Source: a virus (taxonomy: Duplodnaviria > Caudoviricetes). Taken from it: a stretch of DNA of 64,000 nt. This document shows, in pieces, positions 4,938 to 58,456 of the stretch. The DNA is taken from positions 32,001 through 96,000 of the IMG/VR virus record IMGVR_UViG_3300025858_000010. The stretch is one strand, 5' to 3'. The notes beneath the pieces were generated by a model. The model did no database searches and had not been told where the DNA came from. It saw only the letters and a list, made by a program, of their open reading frames with translations. Positions within the stretch are counted from its first letter, which is position 1; every line of letters starts with the position of its first letter. The position numbers and the translations under genes are program-made.

Positions 4938-6818
4938 ATGAATATGAAAAGTAATAAAACTATTGGGATTGATTTAGGAACAGTGAACTCGGCTGTTGCT
5001 GTTATGGAAAATGGAGTGCCTGTTATTATTGTAAATAGTGAGGGAGAAAGAACAACACCCAGTACTGTGGGTTTTACAGATAATGATAGGAAAGTCGGTA
5101 ATCCGGCTAAAAGACAGGCTGTTATGAACAGTGAAAGGACTGTTCATTCTATTAAAAGACTTATCGGTGAAAAATTTAAAAATTTAACAAACGAAATAAA
5201 TAGATATAGTTATAAGATAGTAGAAAAACATGAAACTCCTTTTGTTAAAATTGATAACAAAGAATATTCCCCGCAAGAAATATCAGCAATTATTCTTCAA
5301 AAAATGAAGAAAACTGCTGAAGATTATCTCGGTCAAGAAGTAGAAAAAGCGGTAATTACAGTACCTGCTTGGTTTAATAATGATCAAAGACAAGCAACTA
5401 AAGAAGCAGGTGAAATTGCGGGGCTTAAAGTTGAACGTATTATAAACGAACCAACAGCTGCGGCTCTAGCCTACGGACTTGATAAATTGAAAAAAGATAT
5501 GAAAGTCGTTGTGTTCGATTTTGGAGGAGGAACATTTGATGTTTCTATTCTAGATTCTGGTGATGGTGTATTTGAAGTAAAATCTACTTGTGGTGACGTA
5601 CATCTAGGTGGTAATGATATCGATGATGTAATCATAGATTGGTTGGCTAAAGAATTTAAGAATGATAATGGTATGGATTTGAAAAAAGATCCAATGGCAT
5701 ATCAAAGATTGAAAGATGCCGCTGAAAAGGCCAAAATTGAATTATCTTCAAACACAGAAACAGAAATAAATCTTCCGTATATAACATCTGTAGATGGTGT
5801 GCCTAAGCATTTGATATATAAATTGAATAGGGCCAAATACGAACAAATTGCTGATTCTGTTTTTAAAAGACTTATTCCCATTTCTGAAAAAGCCATAAAT
5901 GACTCCGGAATTAGTAAATCGCAAATAGATGAAGTTATTCTAGTTGGTGGCTCAACTCGTATTCCAGCTGTAAGAGAAATTGTTAAAAAAATATTTGGTA
6001 AAGAACCAAATAATTCGGTTAATCCTGACGAAGCGGTATCTTGTGGTGCAGCTATAATGGGATCGATTTTATCTGGAGAAATCGACGATATTCTTTTACT
6101 TGATGTAACACCATTATCTTTGGGTATTGAAACCATGGGTGGTGTGATGACAAAACTGGTAGAAGCCAATACTACAATTCCAACTAGCAAATCTCAAATA
6201 TTCTCCACAGCATCAGATAATCAACCAGGAGTAGAAATTCACGTATTACAAGGTGAAAGACCTATGGCCAAGGATAATAAAACGTTGGGTAGATTCCACC
6301 TTGAAAATTTACCGCCAGCTCCAAGAGGAATTCCACAAATTGAAGTTTCTTTTAATATCGATGCAAATGGAATTATGGACGTTAAAGCTGTTGACAAGGC
6401 AACTGGAAAGCAACAAACAATCAGAATCGAAAATTCATCTTCAATTCCAAAGGAAGAAATAGAAAGGATGAAAGATGAAGCAAAAGAAAATGAAGAAACA
6501 GATAAAAAAGAAAAAGAAAAAATAGATAAGTTAAATCAAGCTGATGCCATGATTTTTCAGACAGAAAAACAAATTAAGGAATTATCTGAAAAATTAACAG
6601 AAGAAGATAAAAAAGATTTAAATGATATTGTAGAAAAACTAAAGGATTCTCATAAGAGTCAAAATGTAACAGATGTAGATAAATATCTATCGGAATTAAA
6701 TGAAAAATGGAATTTAATTTCAACTAGATTATATCAAGAAACATCATCTGAACAACAAGGACCAAAAGCAAAAGACGCAGATCCGGTCGAAGATGTTGAA
6801 TTTTCAGAAGTTAAATAA
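4938..6818 (+). CDS. dnaK: Hsp70 chaperone DnaK
   Basis: [57 protein letters not shown] motifs. Confidence 0.97.
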
Positions 6819-42206: not shown

Positions 42207-44504
42207 TTACTTTTCCGTATAAGGATAAACATTTTGAGCGTTTGCTGCAAATCTTTTATTTCCTTCATCGAATTGTATAGAATATTTGCCATCTGGTCTA
42301 ACTCCTATAAATATTCCTTTTTTATTATCATATACAGATTTATCTTTTTTGTATATTATTTTATCTCCTTCTTTAAATTTTGATTCTATTTTTTTAATTT
42401 CGGTTGTTTCACTTCCTTCTTTTTTTTTCATATATGGATTTTTCCAATTATTATCGCCGTTTGTCAAATAATTTTGTGTAGAAACCAAATGAAATGTGTC
42501 AAAATGATCTAATGCGTTTATACCTTGTTGATATTTTTTATCAGTATGAAGAGCACATATCATATTACTTCTATAACTATTTCCCTCTCTCGTTATCCAT
42601 CCTTCGTTAGCTGCATACATTTGAAATAAATCTCTATCTTTGTCATATCTTGTATAAACATAATCCATAAACGTTCCATCTTCAGGAACAGCCAATCTCC
42701 AAACTAAAGCTCTACCTAGAAGTTTTTTCCCATCATCGTTCAATAAAACCAACATTTGAATGACGTCTGGATTATCAACAAACATTTGCATCTCTGGGGC
42801 TTTATTTGTTCCTCTCATACAAGAACTATTTAACATTCCTCCTCCCTGAACGTAATTAGCGCCATTATACCAGTATCGTATATCTTCGCCCGATACAAGT
42901 TTTAATTTATCTGATATTCCTTTTATACACAAATCATAAGTGGCTTTATATGCGTTGGTCAGAGATTCTACATCTTTATCCGTGAGTTTTTCATTTACTA
43001 TTCTAAAAAATTTACCAATTTTCATCATTTGTCTAAATCTGGATTTGAATGGATTTTCTTTATCATCCAATCTTTTAAATTTATCTAATGGGATGTAACT
43101 GATCATTTCGTTTGTATCTGTAATATCGAAATATGATAAATTCATTAATGCAGACTTTATTTTTAAATTTAATCTATATAATATCATTGAAAGTCTATCA
43201 CTCGTTATAAATAACATAATTTCTTTATTATCTAATTTTCTTTTTATATCTTCAGATTCTTCTTTTTTAATTATACTAATATTTGCTCTTGGTAGATTAT
43301 AATAATTCTTATTTTTTCCTTGAACATATAATTGTTGACAGAATTTGATCATAAAATTTATTCCGAAATTATCTCTTGGTTTATTTCCGGCTATATTTAC
43401 AATTTCACCGATTTGACCGTCCATATTATCTAACATGAAATTTTGAGATGATTGAGCTATTATATAATCACCAACTTTATAATCATAATTAAATGATTCT
43501 ATATTATCTTTTAATAATTTTAATTCCAACTCGTTTTTCTTTAATTCTTCTTCTGTAGCACTTCTAATTTTATTTTGTGGCACCACATAACCCATAGGAA
43601 CCCCTATCAAATTATTAATGTCGTATAAATTATTATCAAATCTATTTGTAAATTGAACACTATATCTATTATAGATTCCACGTGATATAACTTCCCTAAT
43701 AATTCCAATATTATTTTTAAAATCGACATTATCATAACGTCCTTCTTCTACTACAATAATATCGTTCAACTGAAATGGTTGACCTATTTTATCCAATTCT
43801 TTTTTTACTTTATCTATTTTCTTTTTAAATTTCTCTATTTCTTCAGGTTCGGCATGTCTCATATTCATTTTATTTATAGTTATACCAGCTCCGTTTTTAG
43901 GAAATCCTTCATTATCACTTTTAAAATTTTTATCGGTTTTATCTAAGAATCCCACCCACCATTGATCTGGGCCTACAGGATAATAAGTAATGGCTATTTC
44001 ATCGTCAATGTTAATTAATTTATTATCATATCCAATTTTAATACTACCTATACCAACTATAACATCACCGATTTTATATTTTGTATTCATCCTTATGTCC
44101 TCGTTCTTCTTATTTTCTTCGTGTTTTTTGATAATTTTTTCAAAATATATTGGATCATTAGAGGCAATATTTTTTAAAGGAATATAAAAACAATGTCCTT
44201 TTTTACCAATATCTTTAAATCCAGCGTGAAATTTTTTATTTGGTTCATCAAATTCAATAAGAAAATTACCATATTCTTTCATATCTATTATTGTTCCCGC
44301 TAAATAATCCAGATTAACACCGTCAACTTCACCGTTGGTCATTATTTTATCACCAATTTTAAGATTTTCTCTTTTAATTTCAGCAATAATATTTGATTCG
44401 GTTTTCTTTTTAAACATCCCTATTTCTTCATTAATATAATTAGTCATGAAACCATTATAATTTTTTATCATTTCGTATTCATTCTTATCATTCTTATTTT
44501 TCAT
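42207..44504 (-). CDS. Multi SH3/KOW-like repeat protein with a conserved SCMR/GRALVW domain
   Basis: Five [KQ]xGD.I modules; NSSCMRG..FVDNP..GRALVW..FMDYVY. Confidence 0.6.
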   Translation of the reverse strand: MKNKNDKNEYEMIKNYNGFMTNYINEEIGMFKKKTESNIIAEIKRENLKIGDKIMTNGEVDGVNLDYLAGTIIDMKEYGNFLIEFDEPNKKFHAGFKDIGKKGHCFYIPLKNIASNDPIYFEKIIKKHEENKKNEDIRMNTKYKIGDVIVGIGSIKIGYDNKLINIDDEIAITYYPVGPDQWWVGFLDKTDKNFKSDNEGFPKNGAGITINKMNMRHAEPEEIEKFKKKIDKVKKELDKIGQPFQLNDIIVVEEGRYDNVDFKNNIGIIREVISRGIYNRYSVQFTNRFDNNLYDINNLIGVPMGYVVPQNKIRSATEEELKKNELELKLLKDNIESFNYDYKVGDYIIAQSSQNFMLDNMDGQIGEIVNIAGNKPRDNFGINFMIKFCQQLYVQGKNKNYYNLPRANISIIKKEESEDIKRKLDNKEIMLFITSDRLSMILYRLNLKIKSALMNLSYFDITDTNEMISYIPLDKFKRLDDKENPFKSRFRQMMKIGKFFRIVNEKLTDKDVESLTNAYKATYDLCIKGISDKLKLVSGEDIRYWYNGANYVQGGGMLNSSCMRGTNKAPEMQMFVDNPDVIQMLVLLNDDGKKLLGRALVWRLAVPEDGTFMDYVYTRYDKDRDLFQMYAANEGWITREGNSYRSNMICALHTDKKYQQGINALDHFDTFHLVSTQNYLTNGDNNWKNPYMKKKEGSETTEIKKIESKFKEGDKIIYKKDKSVYDNKKGIFIGVRPDGKYSIQFDEGNKRFAANAQNVYPYTEK

Positions 44505-44591: not shown

Positions 44592-44990
44592 ATGAAAGAT
44601 AAATTGATTTTTAACGATAAAATAGAAATAAGAAAATCGAAGTTACATGGTTGGGGTGTTTTTGCTAAAAGCGATATAAAATCAGGCGAGATTTTAGAAG
44701 AAGATTCTTTTTTAATAATTCCGATGTCACAGAACGAATCATCTTCAATTTTTATAGATTATAGATTCAATTTTCCAAGAACAAATTCTAAATGTCAAGT
44801 AATACCATTTGGTTTTTCTTGTTTATATAATCATTCAGAAAAACCAAACGCAGCCTGGGAAACAAATGATGAAAATAATTTATTTATTTTTTCTGCGATT
44901 AGAGACATTAAAAAGGATGAAGAAATATGTATTTATTATGGGGATATTAATTATTGGAATGAAGGAAGATCTCACACAAAAATAATTTAA
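44592..44990 (+). CDS. SET-domain protein
   Basis: HGWGVFA..DI..GE, YNHS..PN, RDIKKDEEI.I.YG. Confidence 0.9.
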   Translation: MKDKLIFNDKIEIRKSKLHGWGVFAKSDIKSGEILEEDSFLIIPMSQNESSSIFIDYRFNFPRTNSKCQVIPFGFSCLYNHSEKPNAAWETNDENNLFIFSAIRDIKKDEEICIYYGDINYWNEGRSHTKII

Positions 44991-45008: not shown

Positions 45009-47030
45009 TTAAATTTCCCAGTTTTCTTCACCATAAGGATCAATATCCATGTGTTTTAATCTATATTCTTCTTTTTTTTGTTTTATTCTTTTTTGTTCTT
45101 CTTCCCATTTTTCAAATTCATCACCGTCAGCTTTTTTTAAATGATCAAAGCTTATATTATATGATGATCTTGTGTGATCACCATATCCAGTATGTAATTG
45201 AACATTGAATCTATTATCAAATTTAACACAAGCTGAAACATCATCATTAATGCGTGTTATAATACCAATTTCACCTTTAAATAAAATATTGTCCATTCTT
45301 CCATTACATACTACCACATCACCAACATTAAAATAGTCTTTATTTTCGTATATTCTGTTTTCTCTTATCAATAATGAGTCGTCATCTTCCCAAGTTTCTT
45401 CCCCATAAGGGTCAACATCCATATGTTTTAATCTCATTTCCTCTCTAATTTTTTTTCTATATTCTATTTTTTCAGGATCGGTTAATTCTAATAAATAATA
45501 ATAAATATAGTAAGAAGAATTCGTAAAATCGATTCTGTCACAATCCCACAAGTGATTATTGAATCTTTCTGGAAATTTAACTGCCAATAATGGAGAATCA
45601 CTCATTGATAGAATAATACCCACTTCACCATTAAAATAAATATCATCCATTTGTCCGTGGCAAATAACGGAATCACCTATTTGAAAATCATTAATTTCAC
45701 TTTCATTTAAATGTTTGTAGTAATTTGAATTGTAGTCCATATCCCAATCTTCTTCACCGTAAGGATCAATATCCATGTATTTTAATCTCATTTCTTCTCG
45801 TTTCTTTCGTAGTTCAGATATCGGTTTTAATATATTTTTAGAAACAATATATGTATATCCAATACTATGAAATTTGACATCATAATGTATTCCTTTTATA
45901 ACAACTCCATTTACAGTAGAAGATGTATTATTTGAGTGTTTATCGATTATTGTGCCTATTTGACCATTTAGATCAAGACCGCTTTGATTTCCTGTACAAA
46001 TCACTTTATCTCCATTTTTAAAATCATAATCATTTTCGAAGTTCTCATTTAACCAATCTTCTTCGCCATAAGGATCAATATCCATATGTTTTAATCTTAA
46101 TTGTTTTAATCTTTCTTCTTTTCGTTTTTGTTCTTTGGGATCTAATAAATCTAAACAATCTTCTGGAAAGTAATATGAAGATTCATTTAAAAAATAATAA
46201 TTATTATCACGTTTTCTAATAGTGTAACTACGACCAATACAGTCTAACATATTCCGATCCCACCTATTTTTAACAACATGATTTTTTAATTTGTCATTAA
46301 CAACAACCCTATCTCCTATGTTAAATTTATGATTCGAATTTTCGTTAACACTTTCACTTAACCAATCTTCTTCACCATAAGGATCAATATCCATATGTTT
46401 TAATCTCCTTTCCTCTCTAATTTTTTTTCTATATTCTATTTTTTCTGGATCAGCCAATTCTAATAAATGATAATCGATATAGTAAGAAGAATTCGTAATA
46501 TCGATTCCGTTACAGTTCCATAAATGGTTATCAAATCTTTCTGGAAATTTAACTGAAGCATTGAAATGACGCAATGATATAATAATACCTATTTCACCTT
46601 TAAAATAGATATCATCCATTTGTCCGTTACAAATAACAGTATCACCTATTTGAAAATCTTCTATTTTACCTTCATTTAAATAGTGCATTGAATTGTAATC
46701 TTGATCAATCCAGTCTTCTTCACCATAAGGATCAATATCCATATGTTTTAATTTTACTTCTTCTTTTTTAATTTTTGATTCAATTTCTTTGTTTAAATTA
46801 AATAATTTTATTTCATCTTCTACGAACCATATGTTACCACAAAAATATTCAATGACTCTATAATCCGGTAATAAAAAGTTAACTAAACTAACTAAATAAT
46901 AATTTACACCATCGTGTGTATTTATTGTTTTAATTACACCAATTTTATCTACAAGATTTTGTCTTCTATGTCCTTTTTTCACTATAACGACATCGCCAAC
47001 TTTAAAATAATTTGAAAACTTTTTTATCAT
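45009..47030 (-). CDS. Six-module SH3/KOW-like polyprotein, each module ending in a K[HY]MD[IV]DPYGEExW tag
   Basis: Six F.[IVN]GD.V modules, six tags, an [LI]xE after each internal tag. Confidence 0.85.
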   Translation of the reverse strand: MIKKFSNYFKVGDVVIVKKGHRRQNLVDKIGVIKTINTHDGVNYYLVSLVNFLLPDYRVIEYFCGNIWFVEDEIKLFNLNKEIESKIKKEEVKLKHMDIDPYGEEDWIDQDYNSMHYLNEGKIEDFQIGDTVICNGQMDDIYFKGEIGIIISLRHFNASVKFPERFDNHLWNCNGIDITNSSYYIDYHLLELADPEKIEYRKKIREERRLKHMDIDPYGEEDWLSESVNENSNHKFNIGDRVVVNDKLKNHVVKNRWDRNMLDCIGRSYTIRKRDNNYYFLNESSYYFPEDCLDLLDPKEQKRKEERLKQLRLKHMDIDPYGEEDWLNENFENDYDFKNGDKVICTGNQSGLDLNGQIGTIIDKHSNNTSSTVNGVVIKGIHYDVKFHSIGYTYIVSKNILKPISELRKKREEMRLKYMDIDPYGEEDWDMDYNSNYYKHLNESEINDFQIGDSVICHGQMDDIYFNGEVGIILSMSDSPLLAVKFPERFNNHLWDCDRIDFTNSSYYIYYYLLELTDPEKIEYRKKIREEMRLKHMDVDPYGEETWEDDDSLLIRENRIYENKDYFNVGDVVVCNGRMDNILFKGEIGIITRINDDVSACVKFDNRFNVQLHTGYGDHTRSSYNISFDHLKKADGDEFEKWEEEQKRIKQKKEEYRLKHMDIDPYGEENWEI

Positions 47031-47074: not shown

Positions 47075-48139
47075 ATGGAAAAATCTGAAATAAAATTAAT
47101 AAACGGTGATATATCAACATTAATAGAAGATCAATATACTAAAATATTAAGAAGCGAAAATTATAACTTTATATTTAATAAACAAACTGGATTTTTCGTT
47201 CGTTGGGGCAAAACAAAGGAAGATGACGGTGACATAAATCTGGGTCTTCCAGAATTAGTAGACATGGAAATATCCACATCATGTCACGGTATAGATAAAC
47301 CTTGTAAATTTTGTTACAAATCAAATACTCCCAAAGGTGATTATATGTCATTTGAAACTTTTAAGAAAATATTTTCAAAACTCCCACCGAGTATAACACA
47401 ATTGGCTGCCGGTATAGGAGATATTGACGGAAATCCCGATATGTGGAAAATATTTAACTATTGTAGGGAAAATGGAGTTATTCCAAATGTGACTATTAAT
47501 GGAGCTAGAATGACGGATGAATTATTTGATAGATTAGCCTTAATGATGGGAGCTGTTGCTGTATCTTTATATGATAAGGATTTAACTTATACCGCTGTTG
47601 AAGAATTGACAAGAAGAGGATTAAAACAAACAAATATACATTTCCTGTTAAGCGAAGAAACATATGATAAAGCTATAGAAACATTGAATGATATTAAAAT
47701 TGATGATAGATTAAAACATCTTAATGCTATAGTTTTTTTATCTCTTAAAACAAAAGGAAATGCTAAAAACGGTTTCACTCAATTAGGTCAAGAAAAATTC
47801 AATAATATTGTTAAATATTCACTCGATAATAATATATCGATTGGTTTTGATAGTTGTGGAAGTACTAAGTTTTTAAAATCGATTGAAGGACATAACAATT
47901 TTAAACAAATGGAAATGTTAGTAGAAAAATGTGAAGCTTCTCTTTATTCAAGTTATATATCAGTTAGTGGACATTATTACCCTTGTAGTTTTTGTGACGG
48001 TGTAGAAAATTGGGAAGAAGGCATAGACGTTTTAAATTGTGAAGATTTTTTAAAGGATGTTTGGTTTAACGAAAAAACATTAAATTTCAAAAAGAAATTA
48101 TTAAATTGTAATCGAGATTGTCCAGTTTACATAATTTAA
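47075..48139 (+). CDS. Radical SAM protein with SPASM/twitch-like C-terminus
   Basis: CX6CX2C (CHGIDKPCKFC), PNVTING, C.....YI...G..YPCSF..C...C. Confidence 0.85.
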   Translation: MEKSEIKLINGDISTLIEDQYTKILRSENYNFIFNKQTGFFVRWGKTKEDDGDINLGLPELVDMEISTSCHGIDKPCKFCYKSNTPKGDYMSFETFKKIFSKLPPSITQLAAGIGDIDGNPDMWKIFNYCRENGVIPNVTINGARMTDELFDRLALMMGAVAVSLYDKDLTYTAVEELTRRGLKQTNIHFLLSEETYDKAIETLNDIKIDDRLKHLNAIVFLSLKTKGNAKNGFTQLGQEKFNNIVKYSLDNNISIGFDSCGSTKFLKSIEGHNNFKQMEMLVEKCEASLYSSYISVSGHYYPCSFCDGVENWEEGIDVLNCEDFLKDVWFNEKTLNFKKKLLNCNRDCPVYII

Positions 48140-51087: not shown

Positions 51088-51105
51088 AAAATTATGAAAA
51101 GTTAG

Positions 51106-51179
51106 ACGGATAGATGGGATTCGAACCCATGTTCGTGGAGTTAGAGGCCGCCGCTCTGACCAGACTGAGCTACTATCCG
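51106..51179 (-). tRNA. tRNA with CUA anticodon (amber-suppressor-like), imperfect anticodon stem, no encoded CCA
   Basis: CGGATAG/CTATCCG acceptor, GCTC/GAGC D arm, CT-CTA-AC loop, ATGGG-TTCGAAT-CCCAT T arm. Confidence 0.8.
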
Positions 51180-55810: not shown

Positions 55811-57256
55811 ATGATAAAAAAATTTAAATTATTTGAAACCAATAATAATAAAATAGAAGCAGCTATTGATTTTATCAGAAATGTTATAAAGGATACAGAA
55901 TGGGAAGGTAAAGTATTTCTTGCTGGAGGTGCTGTAAGAGATGAAGTGATGGGCAGAACGCCAAAAGATATAGATCTTCTTATTAATGCACCTAACGGAG
56001 GCATTTTATTTGCAGATTGGATAACTAAAAAATTGGGTATATATGTAGATGGTAAAAATCCAGTAGTTTATCCTAGATTCGGCACAGCTATGTTCACCCT
56101 TAGAAAAATAAAACATGATGGAGTAGATATTTCTTTTGTTGAAATTGAATGTGTTATGCCAAGAAAAGAAGAATATCTAAAAGGAAATAGAAAACCCATT
56201 GTTTCACAAGGAACACTCAAAGATGATGTCAATAGAAGAGATTTTACAATAAATAGTCTTCTAAAAGATTTATCAAGCGGCGAAATATTAGATCTAACAG
56301 GAATGGGTAAAAATGATATAAGAGACGGTATAGTGAGAACTCCTTTAAATCCGGATGTGATTTTTGATGAAGATCCTCTCAGAATGCTTAGAGCAATTAG
56401 AATAATTGTTAAATATAACTGGACATTACCTTTATTCATGATAAGAAGTTTGAAAAAGAACGCCAAAAAACTTCAATATATTTCACAGGAAAGAATACAG
56501 AGCGAATTAAATAAAATGTTACTAACAGACAATCCAGACAAGGCAATTAGATTGTTGCAAATATTTGGACTTTCTAAATATATTTTTCCAGAATTAGATA
56601 AACTCATCGGTATGAAACAAAATAAACATCATCAGTACGATGCTATGCGTCATTCATTAGAGGTATTAAAGAATACGCCAAAGGACTTAATAACTAGATT
56701 ATCTGGATTACTACATGATATAGGAAAATCCAAGACAAGAGAGATAATAGATCACGAAGTGCATTTTTATGATCATGAAGAAGTAGGGGCTTATATGGCT
56801 CGTGATATATTGCATAGACTAAGATATCCAAGAGAAATTTGTGATGCGGTTTTTCTTATCATTAATAATCACATGAGAACTAAACATTCTGGCGATGAAG
56901 GTGAAATAAGTGATAGAACACTAAGAAAACTAAAAATGGATTTAGGCCCCCATTTAGAAAGAACATTAGATTTAATTCACGCTGATAACATATCACATTC
57001 TGCTCAATCTAATATGCCAAATCAAATATCTAATATAAGAAGAAGATTTAAAGAGTTAGAAGAAAAAGATAAAGGAATAAATATTAAACCGCCATTAAAT
57101 GGTAATGATATAATGGAAATACTAGGAATTACAAAGGGACATCATCCAGTGATAGGAAGATTGTTAGCACTTCTTAAAGATAAATATTTAGATGATCCGA
57201 CTATGACAAGAGATGAAGCCATAGATATAGTTAAAAACAATTTCATTAGATCATAA
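55811..57256 (+). CDS. cca: CCA-adding tRNA nucleotidyltransferase with HD domain
   Basis: AGGAVRD, DIDL, RRDFTIN, EDPLRMLRA, SQERI, LHDIGK. Confidence 0.9.
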   Translation: MIKKFKLFETNNNKIEAAIDFIRNVIKDTEWEGKVFLAGGAVRDEVMGRTPKDIDLLINAPNGGILFADWITKKLGIYVDGKNPVVYPRFGTAMFTLRKIKHDGVDISFVEIECVMPRKEEYLKGNRKPIVSQGTLKDDVNRRDFTINSLLKDLSSGEILDLTGMGKNDIRDGIVRTPLNPDVIFDEDPLRMLRAIRIIVKYNWTLPLFMIRSLKKNAKKLQYISQERIQSELNKMLLTDNPDKAIRLLQIFGLSKYIFPELDKLIGMKQNKHHQYDAMRHSLEVLKNTPKDLITRLSGLLHDIGKSKTREIIDHEVHFYDHEEVGAYMARDILHRLRYPREICDAVFLIINNHMRTKHSGDEGEISDRTLRKLKMDLGPHLERTLDLIHADNISHSAQSNMPNQISNIRRRFKELEEKDKGINIKPPLNGNDIMEILGITKGHHPVIGRLLALLKDKYLDDPTMTRDEAIDIVKNNFIRS

Positions 57257-58456
57257 TATTGGATAAACTACTTCCGGGTAAACTTCTAAAATCTCTGTTT
57301 TTTTATTTTCATAAGGTACTTGATTTAAAATATAACGTAAGGCATTGAGTTTAGCTACTCTCTTATCGTTAGAATCTACGGCTACCCAAGGCGATTTTTC
57401 AGTCGATGTTCGCTTAAACATTTCTTCTTTATAAGCAGAATATTGATCCCATTTATCTAAAGATTTAGCATCATTTGGACTGAATTTCCAATATTTAATT
57501 GGTGATGTTTGTCTCAGTTTAAATCTTAGTTCTTGCGTATCTTTTGTTATCGAAAACCAAAATTTAATAAGATAGAAGTTATTATCTATCAAATCATATT
57601 CAAATGGTAAGACATCTTCCATGAAATTTTCATATTGTTCTGTTGTACAATAACCCATAACCGGTTCAACTACAGCTCTATTATACCATGAACGGTCATA
57701 AAAAGCGATTTGTTGTGTGGCTGGAAGAACATCAGAGTAACGTTTAAACCAATTTTTTTTCTCATCTTCTGATGGAATTCCAAATGTATTTATTCTAAAA
57801 TAACTAGGGTGTAAGTTTTCTGTTGCTGTTCTAATGAATGATCCTTTGGATGCAGCATCTCTTCCTTCTGCAACAACTACTAATTTTTTATTATTTGAAA
57901 ATAACCAATCTCTCATTTTTAAGAGTTCTATTTGCAGAGAAGCTTTTTCTAATTCAAATCTTCGTCTTTTAACTCTAAATCTTGGTGCACTAGAAATTAC
58001 TTTACGCCATTCGGCGAACTCTTTATCTTCAATGTAAGGATCATAATAAACGTCTTCTGTATCCACATCAGTTATATCTATGTCCTGTTCAGCGTTATAT
58101 AATGTTTTTAACCTTTTTGGAATTGATGATAGATAATTATCGAAGTAATTTTCAATTTTTTTATCTTTACCTTTTAATTTTAAATTGTTTATGCCTCTAA
58201 AAAAAGTATCTATGTTGAGTTGTTCCATGACGTTTTTATCAACTTCTTTTTGAAGATCCATGAGAAATTGATTATCAATTTTTTTAATTTCACCTCTCAT
58301 TATTTTTTCTTTATAGTCCGTAAGAAGTCGAACAAGTTCGGATTCTAGTCTTTCCATATCATCTTCACTTTTGAAGTATGATTTTATATTATTAAAAAGT
58401 TTTTTGAAATCCTTTTTAAAATTTTCATTTAGAAAGTTATCATATTTATCTATCAT
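57251..58456 (-). CDS. ppk2: Polyphosphate kinase 2 with N-terminal extension
   Basis: EGRDAASKG, FYDRSWYNRA, KFWFSI, WKFSPND, PW. Confidence 0.92.
   Translation of the reverse strand: MIDKYDNFLNENFKKDFKKLFNNIKSYFKSEDDMERLESELVRLLTDYKEKIMRGEIKKIDNQFLMDLQKEVDKNVMEQLNIDTFFRGINNLKLKGKDKKIENYFDNYLSSIPKRLKTLYNAEQDIDITDVDTEDVYYDPYIEDKEFAEWRKVISSAPRFRVKRRRFELEKASLQIELLKMRDWLFSNNKKLVVVAEGRDAASKGSFIRTATENLHPSYFRINTFGIPSEDEKKNWFKRYSDVLPATQQIAFYDRSWYNRAVVEPVMGYCTTEQYENFMEDVLPFEYDLIDNNFYLIKFWFSITKDTQELRFKLRQTSPIKYWKFSPNDAKSLDKWDQYSAYKEEMFKRTSTEKSPWVAVDSNDKRVAKLNALRYILNQVPYENKKTEILEVYPEVVYPIL

Follow-up and report, generated by a model that had tools for sequence, protein, structure and literature searches.

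The gene at positions 45009-47030 of the phage DNA analysed here raises the question of why six similar small domains, each closed by the same acidic peptide, are joined in one chain, and whether that chain is kept whole or cut. The analysed stretch, called the window below, is 64,000 nt long and covers positions 32,001-96,000 of the IMG/VR record IMGVR_UViG_3300025858_000010 (Caudoviricetes). The parent phage record comprises 243,112 bp with 26% G+C, and its proteome 275 ORFs. A sequence-only reading of the window had proposed that the product of this gene is cut in the prohead into six small proteins. We judge the chances to be about even that it is indeed a polyprotein loaded into the head, where a protease of the gp21 type would cut it into six acidic barrel proteins, each with its tag.

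Anatomy of the six-module protein

The target is one unbroken minus-strand ORF of 673 aa that ends in TAA and encodes a product of 80 kDa with a pI of 5.1. Its features, in window coordinates, are the following.

45009-47030, minus strand: whole target ORF, six [barrel - charged helix - tag] modules
46710-47030, minus strand: module 1 (residues 1-107), start MIKKFSNYFKVGD, CTS-like without a Glu site; tag at 46710-46748
46362-46709, minus strand: module 2 (residues 108-223); tag at 46362-46400
46053-46361, minus strand: module 3 (residues 224-326), poorly modelled; tag at 46053-46091
45744-46052, minus strand: module 4 (residues 327-429), opening directly with LNE|N; tag at 45744-45782
45390-45743, minus strand: module 5 (residues 430-547), paralogue of module 2; tag at 45390-45428
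45012-45389, minus strand: module 6 (residues 548-673); tag at 45018-45056, then EI and the stop

Re-translation of these coordinates bore out the six-module description: the modules start with F-x-[IVN]-G-D-x-V at residues 9, 126, 236, 337, 449 and 567 and end in K[HY]MD[IV]DPYGEExW, with the tags at residues 95-107, 211-223, 314-326, 417-429, 535-547 and 659-671, and the sixth tag is followed, as had been read, by EI and the stop. Pairwise identities between the modules range from 26 to 75%, and modules 2 and 5 form the closest pair. The two had been taken for near duplicates, a description that does not hold, as they share 75% of their amino acids and 83.5% of their DNA, with a dS of 0.45 and a dN/dS of 0.31. 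Judged by this divergence, the duplication is old and has been held by purifying selection.

The AlphaFold (AF2) model of module 2 alone, built on a six-row alignment, has a pLDDT of 67.7 and is composed, in within-module numbering, of a five-strand barrel (residues 24-85) and a 19-residue helix (residues 88-106), while the N-terminal linker and the tag are of low confidence. VIA-align superimposed the barrel on the KOW domains of Spt5 and NusG, the PHF19 Tudor domain, PWWP domains and PsaE-type SH3-like barrels, with Z of 6.8-7.2, values that fall inside the range of common-fold matches, and an rmsd of 1.6-2.2 Å over 54-59 residues. Foldseek returned the same SH3-like fold class, weakly. Pfam SH3_13 scored 25.7 bits on the target, below its cut-off of 41, and no sequence membership in the SH3_13/KOW families was found. 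The likeness of the modules to KOW, Tudor, PWWP and SH3-like barrels is thus at the level of the fold only, and no function follows from it. In the full-length model, which has a pTM of 0.29, the barrels reach pLDDT 80-90 and all five tag-plus-linker stretches remain below 50. No fixed arrangement of the modules is therefore predicted, and the target, as modelled, is a set of beads on a string.

The acidic eight-residue tag (as in the peptide KHMDIDPYGEEDW) is matched by the pattern [DE]P[YFW]x[ED][ED]xW, which occurs in six in-frame copies in the target; in the tagged proteins of this clade, it is usually terminal or preceded by a basic helix. Genome-wide, we counted 46 copies in about 36 ORFs (~13% of the ORFs) of many folds, in N-terminal, C-terminal and internal positions, and the tag is also carried by the homologues P0023 and P0025 from a 735-kb phage. 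The six tag-coding stretches of the target have diverged in their synonymous positions but encode an almost unchanged peptide, indicating that the constraint acts on the protein; a DNA-level repeat or a recombination scar as the cause of the conservation is ruled out by the same differences. In the literature, 'DPYGEE' gave only unrelated eukaryotic matches.

A neighbouring ORF contains barrels of the same kind.

42207-44504, minus strand: neighbour ORF of 765 aa with the CTS-like leader MIKNYNGFMTNYINE|E; not part of the polyprotein

It comprises at least four SH3-like modules of the target's kind, which lack the tag and any clear site between them, and ends in a phage-only domain, for which an Atlas search returned phage hypothetical clusters only. 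L026 contains a 770-aa orthologue. That this neighbour might be the partner or reader of the tagged proteins is pure speculation.

The target gene sits among non-structural genes, outside the head module, with a SET-domain protein at window positions 44592-44990 and a radical SAM protein at 47075-48139; an Hsp70 is encoded farther away, at 4938-6818. The late-promoter consensus of T4, TATAAATA, showed no enrichment and does not occur upstream of the target gene. ARAGORN reported a tRNA with the anticodon CTA ('tRNA-Pyl') at 51105-51179 (minus strand), a possible amber suppressor, which would have no effect on the target since the ORF ends in TAA. Pfam and PHROGs searches detected no enzymatic or peptidase domain in the target protein, which consists of a single repeated barrel type. 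A peptide-pattern search of viral and metagenome contigs with the whole protein gave no match, and neither did a search of proteins 63-203 aa long with module 2 by itself.

Candidate cleavage sites and the protease of the phage

Between the modules, the linkers that follow the five internal tags carry the following candidate sites, with the bar marking the bond that would be cut.

46668-46679, minus strand: linker 1, LNE|G (residues 118-121), kept in the orthologue P0047
46338-46361, minus strand: linker 2, LSE|S at 46350-46361 and VNE|N at 46338-46349 (residues 224-231); only VNE|N in P0047
46041-46052, minus strand: linker 3, LNE|N (residues 327-330)
45699-45710, minus strand: linker 4, LNE|S (residues 441-444)
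45342-45368, minus strand: linker 5, IRE|N at 45357-45368 and IYE|N at 45342-45353 (residues 555-563)

It had been claimed that an [LI]xE site follows every internal tag within about 11 residues. A site of the form [LIV]-x-E is present in 5/5 linkers, and only the distance needed correction, with sites starting 1-12 residues past the Trp of the tag. In all five linkers, the residue after the Glu of the candidate site is G, N or S. The protein contains 12 [LI]xE motifs, 6 of them within the five linkers, and the fuller pattern [LIVMFYT]xE[SNGA] occurs seven times in post-tag stretches and once elsewhere. The occurrence of a site in all five linkers, with only one elsewhere, supports the polyprotein reading. 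When the linkers were shuffled 100,000 times with their composition preserved, [LIVMF]xE[SNGA] appeared in all five at a frequency of 5e-5 (5 trials) and [LI]xE at 1.4e-3, figures that assume independent linkers, although the stretches after the tags are also rich in Glu, Asn and Ser, and that overstate the case because the modules are paralogues. These shuffles, with those of the homologues below, rule out chance or low complexity as the source of the sites. Structure prediction of each module had been named as a check, and the models of module 2 alone and of the full-length chain likewise agreed with the proposal, as the candidate sites fall within the low-confidence linkers.

The orthologue P0047, a 90%-identical fragment on a 999-bp contig, retains LNE|G and VNE|N together with the fused order of modules 1, 2 and 3, and has lost LSE. 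Module 1 of the target starts with MIKKFSNY, which is CTS-like but leads directly into the first barrel without an intervening Glu site. No removable leader of the T4 style is thus seen on the target; this lack of a cleavable leader counts against the polyprotein reading.

Two other accounts of the motif were considered. That the site is part of the barrel N-terminus is unlikely, because sites follow tags ahead of unrelated folds; with a loose barrel-start pattern, a site lies ahead of 46 of the 64 barrel starts that come after a tag, as against 26 of the 118 that do not. An N-x-S sequon, as 'NES' might suggest, is ruled out, since the Asn before the Glu is found in only 42 of 133 linkers and an Asn after it in 42.

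The enzyme that would cut at these sites is encoded next to the capsid gene.

127379-129805 of the genome, minus strand, outside the window: prohead protease-scaffold ORF of 808 aa, adjoining the capsid gene

The ORF matched phrog_207 ('head maturation protease') with an E-value of 1.5e-26 and T4 gp21 by BLASTP with 27% identity (E 1e-5), whereas Pfam Peptidase_S77 reached 19.7 bits, under the 27-bit cut-off, and phmmer found no match among PDB sequences. Three motif pairs align in register between the protease and gp21 (GEFDHP/GELNHP, VSSRAAG/VSSRGLG and DAVADP/DAVWGP), of which we take GELNHP, VSSRGLG and DAVWGP to bear the catalytic triad of gp21 (His, Ser and Asp). By these alignments, the genome encodes a prohead protease of the T4 gp21/S77 type with His, Ser and Asp aligned. 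A second candidate protease was not found.

T4 gp21 cuts after L/I-X-E (PMC9026906). In the present phage, the rest of the protease ORF is scaffold-like, with ~13 tandem 14-residue repeats that each contain [IV]AE|[NS], and the ORF has the top [LIVMF]xE[SNGA] density of all 275 ORFs (21 sites); T4 gp22 is likewise highest in motif density among the T4 head genes. The repeat unit reads YSEYIAENxDKSID, each with a T4-CTS-like EYIAE|N, and a Gln/Thr/Gly-rich stretch comes after. The propeptide of the gp23-like capsid protein contains a motif, [MIL]-x-E-N, that five members of the clade share near residue 43, close to the position of the T4 gp23 cut FLTE|A. Across the proteome, 17 of the 43 occurrences of [LIVM]NE[SNGA] lie within the first 30 residues of ORFs, in leaders such as MKNYLTYINE|S and MKKYDQFINE|S, which have the same spacing as the T4 CTS MKTYQEFIAE. 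Given that one motif is common to scaffold, capsid propeptide and leaders, the linker motif, hydrophobic-x-Glu-(S/N/G), is by analogy most likely the protease motif of this phage, the specificity being inferred. Surrounded by leader-bearing ORFs are a CCA-adding enzyme at window positions 55811-57256 (plus strand) and a PPK2 at 57251-58456 (minus strand), the latter starting MIDKYDNFLNE|N.

Fused and split cassettes among the homologues

We compared the target with 44 multi-module proteins from outside its genome, which contain 154 internal tags and in which unrelated domains stand in a string, each closed by the tag. The sequence-only reading had made its proposal depend on conservation of the sites in homologues, and they are conserved:.NE[SNG] follows 50 of the 154 internal tags, as compared to 8.1 +/- 2.5 in shuffles (maximum 16 in 1000 shuffles), and [LIVMFYT]xE[SNGA] follows 82, as compared to 23.8. 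The density of the motif after tags is 13-fold above that in the rest of the same proteins, and the distance from the Trp to the Glu peaks at 3-4 and 6-8 residues. In a wider homologue set, a site was found within 18 residues of only 133 of 262 internal tags. The grammar of site plus tag is thus not universal, and this proportion counts against the polyprotein reading. The full CTS-like core is rare internally (3 of 46 matches, with 34 N-terminal), implying that the short site, and not the whole leader, persists.

A search with a six-module profile retrieved 237 proteins, among them many single-module genes of 88-144 aa and multi-module forms of 2, 3 and up to 12 modules. Many single-module genes have the tag and no leader, and single-module genes with both also exist. 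One of these is P0050 (118 aa), whose start, MIKKFDNFLNE|GKKEDFKIGD, matches linker 1 and the start of module 2; complete leaders are present in P0050 and in two other relatives, P0002 and P0003. Separate tagged genes lie 1-3 nt apart at 105858-107436 of this genome and on the related contig L022. Cassette fusion and fission thus appear tolerated. Such tolerance is expected if the units separate after translation and is not proof that they do, but the coexistence of fused and split forms supports the polyprotein reading.

The clearest fused cassette duplication within the genome is a 337-aa ORF at 118065-119078 (plus strand), with two whole cassettes and a third domain. Its cassette consists of the leader KYKNFLNE|N, a domain and the tag RIFTxEDPYGEEDW, and the internal copy of the leader is without Met. 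In another fusion, P0048 (265 aa, on a 1564-bp contig), the N-terminal domain comes from the paralogue P0002 (genome 229155-230768) and what follows is identical to module 6 of the target. The switch between the two falls within the barrel start that both have in common, and P0048 may be a true recombinant or a chimera of the assembly. A second junction motif, W[YFW]KKGKLxxE|S, occurs in P0006, P0012, P0030 and P0076 before modules that have no preceding DPYGEExW tag.

Processed cargo or intact chain

On the polyprotein reading, six cargo cassettes, each composed of an SH3/KOW-like barrel, a Glu/Lys/Arg-rich helix and the portable D[IV]DPYGEExW, would have been fused in frame, with a hydrophobic-x-Glu|(Ser/Asn/Gly) site retained in the flexible linkers between them. 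The chain would enter the assembling head, where the gp21-type prohead protease would cut it after the linker Glu residues. The predicted products are six acidic proteins of 12-14 kDa with one C-terminal tag each, and the tag would serve as an address or docking peptide for each product. This proposal agreed with every sequence-level prediction tried, namely the presence of the protease, the shared motif, the conservation in homologues and the low-confidence linkers, and is in this respect partly supported. Two further features count against it. The target gene lies outside the head module, and the products would be acidic, unlike the basic internal proteins of T4.

The main rival, and a serious one though we hold it rather doubtful, is that the protein remains an intact multivalent adaptor, a string of beads that binds several copies of a partner or itself, in which the Glu sites are uncut leftovers of leaders or simply acidic linker. 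Six nearly invariant tags per chain would give avidity, and the low pTM and flexible linkers fit a tether, yet every one of the five linkers retains the short site, although the remainder of the leader has eroded. The half of the homologues' internal tags that have no site nearby is also in line with an uncut chain; against this, the 44 homologues show, relative to shuffles, a 6-fold excess of the site after tags that depends on residue order. The 765-aa neighbour, which strings the same barrels without tags or clear sites, and the fused order of modules 1, 2 and 3 kept in P0047 favour the adaptor too, but the free interchange of split and fused forms suggests that the modules work alone.

It is unlikely, in our view, that leaders and tags serve a system unrelated to the capsid, with DPYGEExW directing proteins to some other hub or compartment made by phage or host and another protease acting if any cutting occurs. 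The leaders are spaced like the T4 CTS and close with the motif of the scaffold and capsid propeptide, and no second candidate protease was found, which speaks against such a hub, despite the tags on ~13% of the ORFs in many folds and in all positions, the many single-module genes that are tagged and leaderless, and the location of the target gene outside the head gene cluster. Separate products could also arise from internal translation starts instead of proteolysis. A Met is kept in linker 4 (DMDYNS...), and Met is fairly common 1-2 residues past the tag in homologues, but four of the five linkers have no Met ahead of the next barrel, and the internal leader copy in the genome ORF at 118065-119078 has lost its Met, making this explanation highly improbable.

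Outside the tailed phages, the polyprotein reading recalls the African swine fever virus polyproteins pp220 and pp62, which are cut by pS273R. There, too, particle components are made as one chain and a viral protease cuts short conserved sites in maturation, although the viruses, the protease and the sites are unrelated and no tag marks each module. The closest known systems are the internal proteins and Alt of T4 with their CTS, the multiply cut head proteins of T4, phiKZ and SPN3US, and the polyvalent proteins. In T4, IPI-III and Alt carry a capsid targeting sequence and are processed by gp21 (Mullaney & Black 1996; PMC8442874, PMC9026906). The present phage shares with them a gp21-type protease and the hydrophobic-x-Glu motif, its relatives and many of its own ORFs have leaders spaced like MKTYQEFIAE, and the cargo would again be non-structural proteins. 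However, T4 cargo comes from separate genes with one N-terminal cut, whereas here six units share one ORF with a site in every linker. The N-terminus of the target is without a Glu site, each unit has an extra C-terminal acidic tag that is absent in T4, and the predicted products are acidic where those of T4 are basic.

Multi-site processing by prohead proteases is known for the T4 core proteins gp22, gp67 and gp68 and for head proteins of phiKZ and SPN3US (PMC5694885, PMC10052503). These polypeptides likewise contain several hydrophobic- or small-x-Glu sites each, and the scaffold of the present phage is equally site-dense, but their cuts destroy scaffolds or remove propeptides that mostly leave the head, whereas each piece here would be a folded domain that purifying selection maintains and that is meant to remain. 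Polyvalent proteins of phages and conjugative elements (Iyer et al. 2017, PMC5512222) resemble the target in the many modules per virion-delivered polypeptide, the extensive shuffling and the proposed proteolytic release. They consist of varied enzymatic effector domains, often with an embedded MPTase peptidase, while the target is built of a single barrel type without catalytic function, contains no peptidase and would depend on the protease of the head; the features that define polyvalent proteins were absent from it by Pfam and PHROGs.

Beyond this gene, we tentatively suggest, with somewhat more doubt than confidence, that the clade of the 735-kb phage uses an undescribed cargo grammar of the form [site | any small domain | DPYGEExW], written in separate genes or in polyproteins of up to a dozen units, in which the head protease frees the units and the tag, not a T4-style leader, addresses each to a common receptor. 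The target would then show this grammar in clean form, with a single barrel family amplified. If this is true, phages of the largest known kind stock their heads with small proteins by the dozen, using a simple, portable two-part code in which a cutting site precedes each unit and an eight-residue tag follows it, and to which fusion and fission of genes do no harm. It would account for the mosaic ORFs of many modules with which these genomes are filled, widen the T4 paradigm of internal proteins to include true polyproteins of tailed phages, and provide a compact handle in two parts for packing foreign proteins into large capsids.

The gp23-like capsid protein of the phage has 85.5% identity to that of its closest relative, the 735-kb uncultured phage LR756501, and its near relatives are all uncultured. 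The record analysed here, at 243 kb and rated complete by CheckV, is about a third of the length of the 735-kb LR756501.1, pointing either to a threefold size spread in a close clade or to a partial record.
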